A stretch of DNA of 34,318 bases from Candidatus Saccharimonadota bacterium (GCA_007131065.1 SLRF01000049.1:1-34318); one strand, 5' to 3'; positions 1 to 34,318 are shown, numbered from the stretch's first letter. Numbers and translations: made by a program. The notes: generated from the sequence alone by a model not told the origin.

Positions 1-675
<675 letters not shown>

Positions 676-686
676 AAATGAAGTTT

Positions 687-1838: not shown

Positions 1839-4324
1839 TATTCCTGCTTGGCCTCAGTTTCTGATATTAAAGCGACGGAAACTATCTCATCATCAGCATT
1901 CAGTCTCATAATACGTACACCTTGGGTGGCGCGACCTATTACAGAGATCTCGGAAGCTTTCAAGCGAATAATGTGTCCTTTGCGGGATATTAACAGTAGC
2001 TCGTCTGAGTCTGGGTTGACTCGCACTACATTGATGACAGGACCGGTCTTCTTGCTAATGACACCTGCTTTCACGCCAAGGCCACCTCGTTTATGGACTG
2101 CGAATAATTTTACTTTCGTGCGCTTGCCGTAGCCATTAGCATGAACCACTAAAATTTGGGCATCGTCGTTAACTACATCGAATCCAACTACTCTATCGCC
2201 TTCTCGTAAGCGAATACCGCGAACACCTCTAGCGCTCCTACCCATAGGTCGGACGTCGGTCTCTTCAAATCTCAACCCTTGTCCATTTGCGGTAGATATC
2301 AATATCTGATCGCCTCCTCCCGTTAGGCGAACCCATTGCAATATATCGTCTTTGTCCAGCTTGATAGCTATGATTCCGTTCGTGCGAATATTAGCGAACT
2401 GCTCCAGTGAAGTCTTCTTAACTACGCCTTTTTGTGTGGCCATAAGTAGATATGAACCCTCTGCATCCCTGTCCTGTCCCAGCTTGATAATCGCACTTAT
2501 CCCTTCGTCGGGGTGTAGTTGAAGTAAGTTTACTATAGCCTGACCCTTGGCAGTTCTCGAAGCTACCGGTATCTCATATGCCTTTATTCGGAATACTCTG
2601 CCCATGGTCGTGAAGAAAAGTACATAGTCATGAGAATTGGCAAACACCATATGAGCTATAACATCTTCTTCCTTAGTGCCCATGCCGACTACACCCTTGC
2701 CACCACGCCCCTGGCTTCTGTAAGTATCGACTGTGGTGCGCTTAATGTAACTACCTTTGGTAAAAGTAATAACCACTTGCTCATTCGGTATCAATTCTTC
2801 ATCAGAGAACTTGCCGATTTCGTGCTCTACGATACTGGTACGACGTTCGTCTCCATATTTCTCTTTCATTTCGAGTAGCTCTTCCTTGACCACTCTCAAT
2901 ATCTCCTCGTCACTAGAAAGTATCTTCTCTAGTTCTTTTATTCTCGCTCGAACTTCCTTAAGTTCATCTTCAACCTTTTTCCGTTCAAGACCGGCCAGGG
3001 TCCTAAGTTGCATCGCCAGTATGGCATTAGCCTGGAGTTCGGAGAGACTGAATTGTTTCATCAAATTAGTGCGCGCAACCTCAGAACTCTCACTCGCACG
3101 AATGGTCTTAATCACCTCGTCAATATCGTCCAAGGCCAGTTTGAGTCCTTCTAGTATATGTTCGCGAGCTTTTGCTTTGCGAAGCTCGAACTCGCTGCGT
3201 CTTCGTATCACTACCTTACGATGCTCTAGGTACTCCCTCAGGATGGCTTCCAGGTTCAATACACGTGGCTGTATGCCGTCTACAAGAGCTAACATATTGA
3301 GATGGAACTTGGTCTGCATCGGAGTCATCTTGTATAGCTGGTTTAGTATCTTTTTCGGATAAGCGTCCTTTTTAAGGTCGATTACTATACGCACGGATCC
3401 GCGTGAGCTCTCGTCACGTAAATCAGATATACCTGTAATTTTTTTATCTTTTACTAGGTCCGCAATCTTCTCGATTAATGTAGCCTTATTCTGACCATAA
3501 GGAATTTCCGTAACTATTATCTGATGTGAATTCTTGTTCTCGACTATTTCTGCAACGGCTCGAACGGTAACTCCGCCACGACCGCTACCGTATGCATGCC
3601 TGATCGATTCCTTGCCATATATGATTCCGCCAGTAGGAAAGTCCGGACCTTTAACAAAATCCAATAGGTCATCGGTAGTGACCTCGTCATTTTCAATCAT
3701 AAACACTAAGGCGTCGACAAGTTCTGTCAGGTTATGTGGAGGTATATTAGTGGCCATACCGACGGCTATACCCATCTGGCCGTTTAGCAGAAGATTGGGT
3801 AGCTTGGCCGGAAGCACAGAAGGTTCGCCCTCAGATCCATCGAAATTAGGACGGAAATCTACGGTTTCTTTATCGATATCTGCAAGCATCTCCTCTGCAA
3901 TAGCGGTCATGCGTGCCTCGGTATAACGCATGGCGGCAGCGGCGTCTCCGTCCATGCTACCGAAGTTACCCTGGCCGTCCACCATCATGTAGCGCAGAGA
4001 CCATGGTTGCGCCATCCTAGCAAGCGAATCATAAATAGCAGAATCGCCATGCGGATGATATTTACCCATCACATCACCGACGATACGAGCGCTTTTGCGG
4101 TATTTCGTATTGTGCCTGATGCCGTTTTCGCCCATGGAGTACAGAATTCGCCTATGCACTGGCTTGAAACCATCACGGACATCTGGCAACGCACGAGCAA
4201 CTATCACGCTCATGGAGTACTCTAGGTAACTCTTCTCCATCTCCTCCACTAGATTCTGAGAGTGTACTACTCCTCGGTTATCTTTGATTGGCTCTGGTAG
4301 TATTGTGTTGTCTTTGTCTGCCAT
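1838..4324 (-). CDS. gyrA: DNA gyrase subunit A
   Basis: This is an 828-aa ORF with a full-length GyrA pattern: DGFKPVHRRILY, HPHGDSAIYDSLARMAQ, AAAMRYTEARM (catalytic Tyr) and C-terminal beta-pinwheel repeats. Confidence 0.98.
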   Translation of the reverse strand: MADKDNTILPEPIKDNRGVVHSQNLVEEMEKSYLEYSMSVIVARALPDVRDGFKPVHRRILYSMGENGIRHNTKYRKSARIVGDVMGKYHPHGDSAIYDSLARMAQPWSLRYMMVDGQGNFGSMDGDAAAAMRYTEARMTAIAEEMLADIDKETVDFRPNFDGSEGEPSVLPAKLPNLLLNGQMGIAVGMATNIPPHNLTELVDALVFMIENDEVTTDDLLDFVKGPDFPTGGIIYGKESIRHAYGSGRGGVTVRAVAEIVENKNSHQIIVTEIPYGQNKATLIEKIADLVKDKKITGISDLRDESSRGSVRIVIDLKKDAYPKKILNQLYKMTPMQTKFHLNMLALVDGIQPRVLNLEAILREYLEHRKVVIRRRSEFELRKAKAREHILEGLKLALDDIDEVIKTIRASESSEVARTNLMKQFSLSELQANAILAMQLRTLAGLERKKVEDELKEVRARIKELEKILSSDEEILRVVKEELLEMKEKYGDERRTSIVEHEIGKFSDEELIPNEQVVITFTKGSYIKRTTVDTYRSQGRGGKGVVGMGTKEEDVIAHMVFANSHDYVLFFTTMGRVFRIKAYEIPVASRTAKGQAIVNLLQLHPDEGISAIIKLGQDRDAEGSYLLMATQKGVVKKTSLEQFANIRTNGIIAIKLDKDDILQWVRLTGGGDQILISTANGQGLRFEETDVRPMGRSARGVRGIRLREGDRVVGFDVVNDDAQILVVHANGYGKRTKVKLFAVHKRGGLGVKAGVISKKTGPVINVVRVNPDSDELLLISRKGHIIRLKASEISVIGRATQGVRIMRLNADDEIVSVALISETEAKQE

Positions 4325-27127: not shown

Positions 27128-27540
27128 TGGTGGAGCTGCGGGGAATCGCACCCCGGTCCGCGAGATAACTTCCTATCCTTCTACGAGCATAGTCGATTTA
27201 AAAATGTTCGGACGAATTCACCAAGAAACCGACAAAGAGAAATCGTCTATAGCCGTAATTAAAAATTTGACTGGGTGGATACGGCAACCGCCCTGTCTCA
27301 TCCGAATATATGACATCAGAAAACCGCTATTCGGAGATCACGGAACTGATGGCTGTGGCGTTTAGGCTACAGCTGTCGCAAGGTTTCGAGGCACGAAAGC
27401 TTCAGAAACTGAAGCTAACACACTGTTCACCTTGCTAGTAAATGCGTTTGCATTTGTTGTAGTTGGTCCAGCTAACGTGTAGACCAAACCGGCTCGCAGA
27501 ATAGGTTGTCAAAATACTCACGTCGAAGCTTGTCAGCCCC
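27128..27540 (-). ncRNA. ssrA: tmRNA (one-piece, about 413 nt)
   Basis: The minus strand begins GGGGCTGACAAGCTTCGACG and ends GGACCGGGGTGCGATTCCCCGCAGCTCCACCA (T-arm, acceptor, CCA). A candidate tag ORF starts at nt 90 and ends ..LATAVA-TAA. Confidence 0.92.
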
Positions 27541-33097: not shown

Positions 33098-33451
33098 ATG
33101 AGAGTTAAACGAGGCGTTACCGCCAGGAAAAGACACAAGAAGCTACGCAAAGCCGCCAAAGGCATGCAACACAACCGGACATCTAGCCCTCGCATGGCTA
33201 GACAGGGTGTACAGAGGGCTATGCAATACCAGTACCGAGATCGTCGTAATCGTAAGAGAGATTTCCGTCGACTATGGATTACCCGTATTAATGCCGGTGC
33301 GCGTGAGCACGGTTTAAGCTATAGCCAGCTAATGAAGAAGCTAAACGATGCCGATGTCAAGCTCGACCGAAAGATACTAGCCCACTTAGCGGCCACTGAA
33401 CCCCACGCATTTAAAGGCGTTGTGGACTCAGTCAATAAATCATCTAAGTAA
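33098..33451 (+). CDS. rplT: 50S ribosomal protein L20
   Basis: This 117-aa ORF begins MRVKRGVTARKRHKK and contains LWITRINA. Confidence 0.96.
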   Translation: MRVKRGVTARKRHKKLRKAAKGMQHNRTSSPRMARQGVQRAMQYQYRDRRNRKRDFRRLWITRINAGAREHGLSYSQLMKKLNDADVKLDRKILAHLAATEPHAFKGVVDSVNKSSK

Positions 33452-33463
33452 TTTTTAAATCGC

Positions 33464-33505
33464 AAAAATAAAAAACCTGGAATCAAATGATTTCAGGTTT
33501 TTTAT
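33464..33505. terminator. bidirectional intrinsic terminator shared by rplT (+) and rnpB (-)
   Basis: An A-run, then CCTGGAATCA-aa-TGATTTCAGG (33476-33497), then a T-run. The element reads as a terminator on both strands. Confidence 0.75.
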
Positions 33506-33711
33506 TGCAAGACCACGTATAAGCCGGATTCTGTCATTGAAGATAGCTATCTATCTAGTCCCGATATTGCTATCGGGATCAAGCGGGTAGTTGCTTACCG
33601 TCGCCTGGGCTAAGCATATGACGGCTCGCTCCTTGCAGCGGACGGGGTTTACCTCCCTACAATGGTCACCCATCGAGGCTGTGGGCTCTTACCCCACTCT
33701 TTTCACCCTTA

Positions 33712-33836
33712 CCCCGCACCTGAAACCGATAGTGCTTATGCACTTACGTGTAACTTTTTGATATATCTCGATTAAACGGATATATTTCAAAAATCCACCT
33801 ACTTGAACGTAAGTTCAATCGGTTTCAGGTGCGGGG
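33712..33836 (-). repeat. P12 helix of rnpB: perfect 19-bp inverted repeat around an 87-nt AT-rich loop
   Basis: CCCCGCACCTGAAACCGAT (33712-33730) pairs with ATCGGTTTCAGGTGCGGGG (33818-33836). These arms share the 14-nt CCCCGCACCTGAAA with the P3 arms. Confidence 0.85.
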
Positions 33837-33940
33837 CGGTATTGTCTCTGTGGCACTTTCCCTAGGATCACTCCCGGTTGCCGTTAGCAACCGTCCTGCC
33901 CATGCGCTGTCCGGACTTTCCTCCCCGCACCTGAAATCAC

Positions 33941-34189
33941 TTAACGAAAGCCTACTCTTTTCTTCAGCTCCACTAGACCGCGACCGTATCGCTTGAGCTT
34001 ACGTTCACGTTCCTGAGCCAAAGCTTTCGTTAAAAATGCTTCGTAATACACAAGTTGCCAAGGTGTTCCAGTCTTAGTCGCGGAACTGTGGCCTTGGTTG
34101 TGTTGCTTAAATCGCTTCTGCAAATCTGCCGTTGAGCCGATATAGAAACTCCCGTTTTTCTTGCTCCTTAACAGATATACGTAATGCAT
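33941..34189 (-). CDS. small stand-alone GIY-YIG nuclease domain protein (YhbQ/YazA-like, 82 aa), nested inside rnpB P3
   Basis: The protein reads MHYVYLLRSKKNGSFYIGSTADLQKRFKQHNQG....LVYYEAF..ALAQERERKLKRY. This fits the GIY-(10)-YIG, Arg and Glu pattern of the UPF0213/COG2827 group. The ORF is intact and its TAA abuts the 3' arm of the P3 helix. Confidence 0.85.
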   Translation of the reverse strand: MHYVYLLRSKKNGSFYIGSTADLQKRFKQHNQGHSSATKTGTPWQLVYYEAFLTKALAQERERKLKRYGRGLVELKKRVGFR

Positions 34190-34252
34190 ACAGCGATTTT
34201 AGCATAGTGATTTCAGGTGCGGGGTAGCTATCCAGTGATCTTGCAATTAGAA

Positions 34253-34281
34253 ATTATAGAAGTCTATCGGCTTTTCTGCAA
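34253..34281 (-). promoter_or_regulatory. rnpB promoter
   Basis: The minus strand reads TTGCAG (rc 34276-34281), a 17-nt spacer, then TATAAT (rc 34253-34258). P1 starts 8 nt further on, at G 34244. Confidence 0.65.
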
Positions 34282-34318
34282 ATCAGATTCTTCATCAAGT
34301 ATAATGTTGACCTGTTCG

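Follow-up and report, generated by a model that had tools for sequence, protein, structure and literature searches.

Bacterial ribosomal RNA (rRNA) genes can carry intervening sequences (IVSs), which RNase III removes without religation and some of which carry an open reading frame (ORF) of the 23S_rRNA_IVP family (PF05635). Repeats are found in other RNA genes as well: short tandemly repeated repetitive (STRR) sequences are inserted in helix P12 of the RNase P RNA gene (rnpB) of heterocyst-forming cyanobacteria, and the palindromic elements of Rickettsia occur in both RNA and protein genes. Here we compare with such systems an rnpB gene of a Candidatus Saccharimonadota bacterium, found in a 34,318-nt stretch of DNA (GCA_007131065.1 SLRF01000049.1:1-34318; this whole stretch is called the window, and positions are counted from its first letter). 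Helices P3 and P12 of this RNA are long hairpins that share an arm sequence; the P3 hairpin encloses a gene for a GIY-YIG nuclease, and the P12 hairpin encloses no gene. Sequence comparison makes it probable that the two are copies of one palindromic cassette family of the Patescibacteria.

The hairpins resemble rRNA IVSs in that an extended hairpin replaces a helix tip, occurs sporadically among relatives, sometimes encloses an ORF, and is not an intron; the arms fully form P3 and P12, and relatives have empty P3 and P12. They differ from IVSs in their RNase P RNA host, in the use of one arm sequence over many sites, and in their GIY-YIG nuclease cargo. With the STRR and Rickettsia elements they have in common that repetitive or palindromic DNA is tolerated in peripheral helices of functional RNAs, but the sequences are unrelated and those elements have no associated nuclease gene. 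REPIN/RAYT systems (Bertels and Rainey 2011, PMC3116915) and MITEs (miniature inverted-repeat transposable elements) likewise combine non-coding palindromic hairpins with one gene flanked by inverted repeats, with repeat variants specific to each genome. In the window the ORF-less helix and the coding element do have terminal inverted repeats in common, as MITEs and their coding relatives would. Unlike in those systems, however, the repeat-flanked gene encodes a GIY-YIG nuclease, rather than the HUH tyrosine (Y1) transposase of REPIN/RAYT or a DDE transposase, and the copies lie within RNA genes rather than between genes, at low copy number and with no fixed target duplication. GIY-YIG homing endonucleases (I-TevI, the free-standing Seg enzymes) offer the same catalytic fold and insertion polymorphism in conserved genes, but our protein has no DNA-binding domain and no intron, and there are many insertion sites, not one cognate site. 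By analogy, the cassette appears IVS-like in place and tolerance and REPIN/RAYT- or MITE-like in family structure, with a nuclease of a type unlike those.

GIY-YIG proteins are known to be encoded in rRNA insertions of the Candidate Phyla Radiation (CPR) that are unlike either intron class (Brown et al. 2015, cited in Tsurumaki et al. 2024, PMC11270868). The latter paper (J Bacteriol) describes these insertions as scattered and seemingly outside a homing context, and names the 16S and 23S genes of Saccharibacteria as exceptions that carry no insertions; in a term search of the paper, inverted repeats, palindromes and RNase P RNA all went unmentioned. Our cassettes match these insertions in nuclease family and bacterial group, and some of them (L025, L062, L052 and L040, named as explained below) do lie in 16S or 23S genes. 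The window locus differs by its rnpB host, its Saccharibacteria-like genome, its conserved arm core and its one ORF-less copy. CPR RNase P RNAs have been reported to have large helix extensions and to escape covariance models, with GIY-YIG genes unmentioned (Lui et al. 2021, PMC8172020). Searchable literature yielded no description of the conserved hairpin, of rnpB hosts or of ORF-less copies; GIY-YIG genes in non-intron CPR rRNA insertions are already published, and the hairpin, the rnpB hosts and the ORF-less copies are apparently new.

Two hairpins with common arms in the RNase P RNA gene

The gene and its two inserts have the following features.

33504..34246, minus strand: rnpB, type A RNase P RNA of bacteria, about 743 nt with its two inserts (RF00010 match and P1/P2 pairing)
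34206..34224, minus strand: P3 5' arm CCCCGCACCUGAAAUCACU, left arm of the cassette with the ORF (I2, a perfect 19-bp inverted repeat)
34196..34204, minus strand: extended -10-like motif TGCTAAAAT, 6 nt ahead of the ATG
33941..34189, minus strand: GIY-YIG nuclease gene, 82 aa, a UPF0213/SLX1-like minimal domain (PF01541, E = 1e-19)
33923..33941, minus strand: P3 3' arm, the right cassette arm, overlapping the stop codon and adjoining the P4 sequence AGGAAAGUCC
33818..33836, minus strand: P12 5' arm CCCCGCACCUGAAACCGAU (inverted repeat I1), between J11/12 and GGGUGAAA in the Rfam alignment
33731..33817, minus strand: P12 interior, an AT-rich loop without ORF, 87 nt, with three predicted small hairpins
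33712..33730, minus strand: P12 3' arm AUCGGUUUCAGGUGCGGGG, the partner in inverted repeat I1

The P3 arms (33923-33941 / 34206-34224) form a perfect 19-bp repeat around 264 nt. The P12 arms (33712-33730 / 33818-33836) also form a perfect 19-bp helix, and extended to 27 nt they are still 89% complementary. A reading of this DNA made from sequence alone (the sequence-only reading) had pointed out this P12 helix and the 14 consecutive nt that its arms share with those of P3; both observations hold, the shared 14-mer CCCCGCACCTGAAA occurring four times in the window against an expectation of 0.08, a count that none of 100 shuffled sequences reached. Its account of the P12 loop was also accurate. 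The 87-nt interior has 32% GC, against 46% in the window and 54% in the remainder of rnpB; the three small hairpins appear in the predicted fold, with a z-score of -4.8 when the arms are left off and -10.2 when they are included; and the ORF scan found only mechanical ORFs touching the loop, of at most 33 aa.

The protein encoded within P3 scores 71 bits with PF01541, well above the curated cutoff of 22.6. A 32-sequence alignment of its GIY-YIG relatives has invariant columns at Y16, G18, R26, H30, N31 and E62, and a basic C-terminal helix, RYGRGLVELKKR, is specific to this subfamily. A PDB sequence search returned 1zg2 (UPF0213) at E = 1e-7. The AlphaFold model (predicted local distance difference test score 89) found its best structural matches in UPF0213 and the Slx1 nuclease domain, with template modeling (TM) scores of 0.64-0.72 and 31-34% identity to Slx1; I-TevI matched at a lower TM score of 0.53, and UvrC was also less close. 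The protein is a bare GIY-YIG domain, nearest to UPF0213 and to the nuclease domain of the structure-specific endonuclease Slx1. Although SLX1 and UPF0213 (YhbQ-like) proteins are its best matches in both sequence and structure, the window protein differs from them in its 82-aa length, its lack of a RING or partner-binding domain, and its coding position inside a palindrome. Between orthologues (the window, L001, L002, L089, L090 and L013) the proportion of nonsynonymous differences (pN) is 0.12-0.21 and that of synonymous differences (pS) is about 0.8, that is, saturated. Low pN despite saturated pS indicates that the protein is under purifying selection and that the lineages are old. Scanning viral contigs with the protein alignment found no relatives, leaving a phage origin of the protein unsupported.

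A leader motif of the type TGnTAAAAT (scanned as TGnTAnnnT) is found at -14 to -18 from the ATG, mostly at -15, in 13 of the 16 closest elements, and within the Saccharibacteria subfamily it is kept across four different host sites. A Shine-Dalgarno sequence is absent, and only 6 nt separate the motif from the start codon; these two features suggest that the ORF is transcribed from an extended -10 promoter within the cassette and that its mRNA is leaderless.

A cassette family and its host sites

We define the cassette family by inverted arms of 12-30 bp whose outer end reads CC[C/A]NCAC(C). Saccharibacteria and other Patescibacteria have hundreds of relatives of the GIY-YIG protein, mostly of about 82 aa. 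When one genome per species was scanned, at least 560 of them were confirmed, and we took 80 loci (given L numbers), with 78 ORFs evaluated. Counting an inverted repeat scoring at least 12 as tight bracketing, and using shuffled downstream flanks as control, we found that 61 of the 78 ORFs were tightly bracketed, compared to 0 of 78 controls. The outer core CC[C/A]NCAC (CCCCGCACC-like), counted with the pattern CC[CAT]NCAC, was present in 45 of the 61 bracketed loci. The arm consensus is CCC[C/A]GCACCTTTT, with the outer 9-13 nt conserved in sequence and an arm length of about 19 bp; the window version is CCCCGCACCTGAAA. Both window helices start with CCCCGCACC and have perfect 19-bp arms, and we regard it as highly probable that the ORF-less P12 belongs to the family. 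The insertion element envisaged in the sequence-only reading would be expected to have further copies, and many were found. A metagenome scan for the pattern CCCCGCACCTGAAA N{75,105} TTTCAGGTGCGGGG, which is narrow, gave a single match, L094. The like architecture in independent assemblies from NCBI, JGI, ENA and Logan led us to reject an assembly artefact.

Within rnpB, P3 is occupied in 16 loci, where the 3' arm is followed by AGGAAAGTCC. An ORF-bearing cassette lies at P12 in L013 (Rfam 215 bits) and at the P18 position in L026 and L043. Other hosts are 16S rRNA genes (L025, L062; just beyond the 16S 3' end in L035) and 23S rRNA genes (L052, L040); Rfam confirms five rRNA contexts, and the others were judged from flanking rRNA sequence. 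The ORF is in the sense orientation of the host RNA in every case checked (19 rnpB by flanking motif, five rRNA by Rfam). Cassettes also occupy the leader of the rpsF operon (L089, L093), a tRNA flank (L063), and the starts of pilin-like genes. The L089 arm, CCCCGCACCTGAAATTACT, differs from the P3 arm of the window in just one of 19 positions though it lies outside rnpB, and the L089 protein is 79% identical to the window copy.

Relatives also supply empty sites. L013 has a native 6-bp P3, CTTGGG-TTTA-CCCAAG, and L014, L015, L018 and L031 have a P3 cassette together with a short, ordinary P12 whose sequence is unrelated to the arms. P3, P12 and P18 are each occupied or empty in different relatives, a presence/absence polymorphism.

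An ORF-bearing P3 and an ORF-less P12 occur together in five rnpB genes (window, L001, L094, L033, L034), and all five ORF-less P12 hairpins have perfect arms of exactly 19 bp and AT-rich loops of 84-92 nt. L094 has a third rnpB hairpin, an ORF-less one at P18 (12029-12098) with a 30-nt loop and arms of a CACATA subfamily. The P18 hairpin of L080 (about 3255-3283; also in L084) is minimal, CCCCGCACCTTTT-TTT-AAAAGGTGCGGGG, with 13-bp arms and a 3-nt loop. Further ORF-less copies lie in the rnpB P15-17 region of L013, L026 and L043, and they are common outside rnpB, for example two within the L035 16S gene. From one lineage to another their loops lack conservation: the P12 loop of the window has no conserved sequence in common with those of L094, L033 and L034, and is like that of L001 only at the end beside the 3' arm. 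Clear sharing of interior sequence among ORF-less copies is limited to L086, where an ORF-less copy and its ORF-bearing neighbor have 35 nt of interior in common (94%).

Several observations at the other host sites are worth recording in their own right. ORF-less hairpins with the family core form a large class at the 5' ends of pilin-like genes (L056 2384-2867, 4216-4323 and 1423-1526; also L055, L020, L036, L037, L039, L060, L073, L077, L079 and L086). Here the 3' arm and flank read in frame as a prepilin leader, TTG AAA AGT GGT GCG GGG TTT ACT TTC ATC GAA giving (M)KSGAGFTFIE, and both junctions are marked by the 8-nt direct repeat GGGTTTAC; in L056 the GIY-YIG ORF is between two hairpins, not within one. 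In L063 (2475-2843) the cassette adjoins a tRNA gene whose first 13 nt, GCGCCCATAGTCC, are duplicated on the cassette's other side, which looks like insertion into the tRNA 5' end leaving an intact copy. In L003 (1290-1860) and at equivalent sites in L009, L011 and L012, the cassette caps a short stem that has compensatory changes (ATGTGG/CCACAT vs GTGCAG/CUGUAC) and lies 3' of TATAAT and 5' of a conserved 91-aa ORF. No Rfam family matched the L003 host region at E <= 1, and this host may be a Saccharibacteria leader or non-coding RNA that has yet to be described. Within the L026 rnpB, soon after P4 (about 2066-2170), is a further long hairpin with arms CACCGCACCAATCGAGAA / TTTTCGATTGGTGTGGTG that resemble the cassette core; it may be a fourth colonized rnpB site. 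The rnpB of L002 has large inserts in P12 and at the 3' end, neither of them of the element type, and the same Saccharibacteria contig carries a 23S_rRNA_IVP family (PF05635) gene at 632-943, beside rpmB and outside the rRNA genes.

How the arms came to match

The window, L001, L094 and L089 all have the same 14-nt arm. Identity despite saturated synonymous sites implies that the arm sequence itself is constrained, beyond pairing. Of 1159 arm pairs read in the ORF-sense strand, 93% are Watson-Crick, and G-U pairs (39) outnumber A-C (12), which implies that the hairpin matters as sense RNA. This G-U excess is normal RNA-helix behavior on top of a sequence-conserved core, and it shows as overstated the argument of the sequence-only reading that perfect arms exclude ordinary RNA evolution.

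Arms are also more alike within a locus than between loci: their inner 10 nt match at 6.4 of 10 positions within loci and 3.8 of 10 between them, a difference reached in 0 of 5000 permutations. The L001 P3 and P12 arms have 17 nt in common, including lineage-specific bases (AAAATG) absent from the window arms. The window, L001 and L094 have the CCTGAAA variant in both P3 and P12, L034 has the CCCTT variant in both helices, and L028 has CCCCTCACC in both copies. This likeness points to within-genome copying, gene conversion, or co-evolution with the resident nuclease.

Our proposal is as follows. The cassette would consist of inverted arms of about 19 bp around either a short leader with its -10-like motif and the 82-aa GIY-YIG gene, or 60-115 nt of AT-rich filler without a gene. 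Copies would occupy the tips of peripheral helices in structured-RNA genes, always in the sense orientation, and in the transcript the arms would pair, replacing or lengthening the host helix while the RNA core still folds. In the window, the nuclease-bearing P3 copy and the ORF-less P12 copy would belong to one arm lineage (the G variant, CCTGAAA), kept identical by strong selection on the arm core, probably with occasional gene conversion, and not by helix covariation. The structure-specific nuclease may recognize or cut a DNA hairpin or an empty helix tip, with helix tips ending in C-runs and G-runs as targets, and so promote recombinational copying into RNA genes that leaves no target duplication; the ORF-less copy would depend on the nuclease in trans. 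Inserts at P3, P12 and P18 would be either tolerated as helix extensions or excised by RNase III like rRNA IVSs, and a perfect 19-bp duplex is compatible with such excision. Copying driven by the nuclease we consider possible, with the balance leaning somewhat against it.

Several findings weigh against this proposal. The rnpB and rRNA copies have no target-site duplication, and direct repeats, of varying length (6-13 nt), were seen only at pilin, tRNA and start-codon sites; a classical transposon with a fixed-length target duplication we have rejected on these grounds. No DNA-binding domain is obvious in the 82-aa nuclease. Within its 34 kb the window shows only two copies. Because the GIY-YIG protein served as bait in collecting the loci, ORF-less copies far from an ORF copy are under-sampled; all those seen were close to one, which may inflate the apparent linkage. 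The P12 loop, aligned in both orientations, has no convincing likeness to the ORF cassette: its best match to the P3 insert is 15 of 17 nt in reverse orientation, equaled by 6 of 1000 shuffles, and a search against four GIY-YIG proteins found no protein remnant. Descent of the window P12 copy from an ORF-bearing copy is therefore unsupported, and the kinship between loop and ORF that a miniature copy would show, as the sequence-only reading had it, failed to appear; given a P12 loop without internal homology, the term miniature derivative refers to arms and family pattern only. Finally, the L033 P12 and L094 P18 arms are of the CACATA subfamily, unlike their own P3 copies, so conversion from the P3 copy is not a general rule and independent insertions occur too.

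The last point bears also on a rival account, in which long P3 and P12 helices arose independently and intragenic gene conversion alone made their arms identical. The 17 nt shared by the L001 helices, AAAATG included, the CCCTT shared by those of L034, and the permutation result all speak for concerted evolution, and some of it likely took place. The same core, however, brackets ORFs outside rnpB and in genomes whose rnpB has just one such helix, and conversion accounts for homogenization of arms, not for their origin. Gene conversion, which the sequence-only reading had offered as its alternative, is best seen as a contributing process that leaves the origin of the arms unexplained; as the whole explanation it strikes us as rather doubtful. 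Less likely still is that the arms serve the host, as an RNase III site or protein-binding duplex, with the GIY-YIG gene as passenger and the copies kept by selection. Such a module would fit the conservation of the core at saturated synonymous divergence, the recurring 19-bp arm length, the excess of G-U over A-C in the sense strand and the uniform sense orientation. But presence or absence varies among close relatives at P3, P12 and P18, and sister genomes would not be able to do without an essential signal; moreover, the occupied sites, such as the rpsF leader, pilin gene starts and a tRNA flank, are not united by any function, and the ORF-less loops are not conserved.

At the far end of the scale we place chance, or ancestral helices, with native G+C-rich P3 and P12 stems into whose existing loop a GIY-YIG gene landed. 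The Rfam consensus P3 and P12 are C-rich at 5' and G-rich at 3', and a few outer pairs could be native on that account. Against this are the 14-mer count, the occurrence of the arms in rRNA and non-RNA contexts, and the short native helices of sister genomes: the arms are not ancestral, because native P3 (L013) and native P12 (L014, L015, L018, L031) carry other sequences, and we rejected this explanation as very improbable. The comparison of sister genomes that the sequence-only reading had called for is thereby answered. Its hairpin-forming insertion element is supported insofar as the same arms recur at unrelated sites, relatives have empty sites and one relative has the ORF-bearing form in P12; the weaker parts are the kinship of the loop with the ORF, the link to the rnpB terminator (below) and the argument from perfect arms.

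The rnpB gene as host

The core sequences of a type A rnpB are found in the Rfam alignment (GAGGAAAGUCC, ACAGA, GGGUGAAA). RF00010 matches the minus strand over 33504-33965 with 214 bits against a threshold of 100, and this alignment leaves the 5' end about 280 nt short. It places the 5' end at 33965 and mis-pairs P1-P3 because it cannot bridge the 264 nt inserted in P3. In fact the gene begins near 34246: 34235-34244 and 33507-33516 pair to form P1 (inverted repeat I6), and P2 follows directly, both upstream of the P3 insert. Two features flank the gene.

34253..34282, minus strand: promoter-like site for rnpB, TTTGCA-18 nt-TATAAT (consensus scan, 10 of 12 positions)
33467..33506, no strand assigned: bidirectional terminator-like hairpin (inverted repeat I3), judged to be outside the cassette family

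TATAAT is at the equivalent place ahead of rnpB in L001, L002, L013 and L090. No intron family was found in 33400-34318, either at the Rfam gathering threshold or at E <= 1, and we reject a group I or group II intron, as covariance models detect no ribozyme core in the region. Elsewhere in the window are the 5' 677 nt of a 16S rRNA gene (1-677, minus strand), which fits the bacterial model without large insertions, and a tmRNA gene (27128-27540); neither this partial 16S gene nor the tmRNA gene has a cassette-type hairpin.

The hairpin between rplT and rnpB has the stem CCTGGAATCA (33476-33485) / TGATTTCAGG (33488-33497), flanked by A6 and T6. The sequence-only reading had seen in it the inner part of the P3 arm, and an exact 11-mer, ACCTGAAATCA, is indeed common to the two, with a one-mismatch copy in the other terminator arm. 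By our own estimate, from length alone, about 0.02 exact matches to the 11-mer are expected per window; the motif search gave an expectation of 0.5 with at most one mismatch. The 11-mer was picked post hoc, though, and many sub-words of the arm could have matched somewhere. The family core CCCCGCAC is absent, and the A and T runs that directly flank the stem are typical of an intrinsic terminator. The rnpB terminators of L001, L002, L090 and L094 contain no arm-like sequence; they are similar in style (e.g. AAAAAATCCGGAATGAATCTGGATTTTTT in L002) and unrelated to their own arms. We conclude that the hairpin at 33476-33497 is probably an ordinary bidirectional terminator with a coincidental 11-mer match; that it is a third, degenerate cassette copy seems quite improbable.

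The cassette family gives a concrete anatomy (arms of about 19 bp, a core, a promoter-like motif and a minimal nuclease) to the unexplained non-intron GIY-YIG insertions of CPR rRNA genes. It is found in rnpB too, on as many as three helices, and this also in Saccharibacteria, in whose rRNA genes insertions are reportedly lacking. Automated annotation of rnpB genes with such inserts yields truncated genes, and the cassette would explain why covariance models miss or truncate CPR rnpB genes. We suggest, tentatively and with doubts, that a minimal SLX1-like nuclease and its palindromic arms form an unrecognized class of prokaryotic mobile element, in which the nuclease would recognize structure plus a short core and copy the cassette, or ORF-less relatives in trans, to helix tips of structured-RNA genes that are G/C-clamped. 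The nuclease and hairpin are a compact pair, small enough for biochemistry, and the specificity might be guided by structure. If the proposal is true, a protein gene lies within the RNase P RNA of these bacteria, and this RNA is either much lengthened or naturally divided, in two or three parts, which raises the question of whether an essential ribozyme is assembled from fragments after insert excision.

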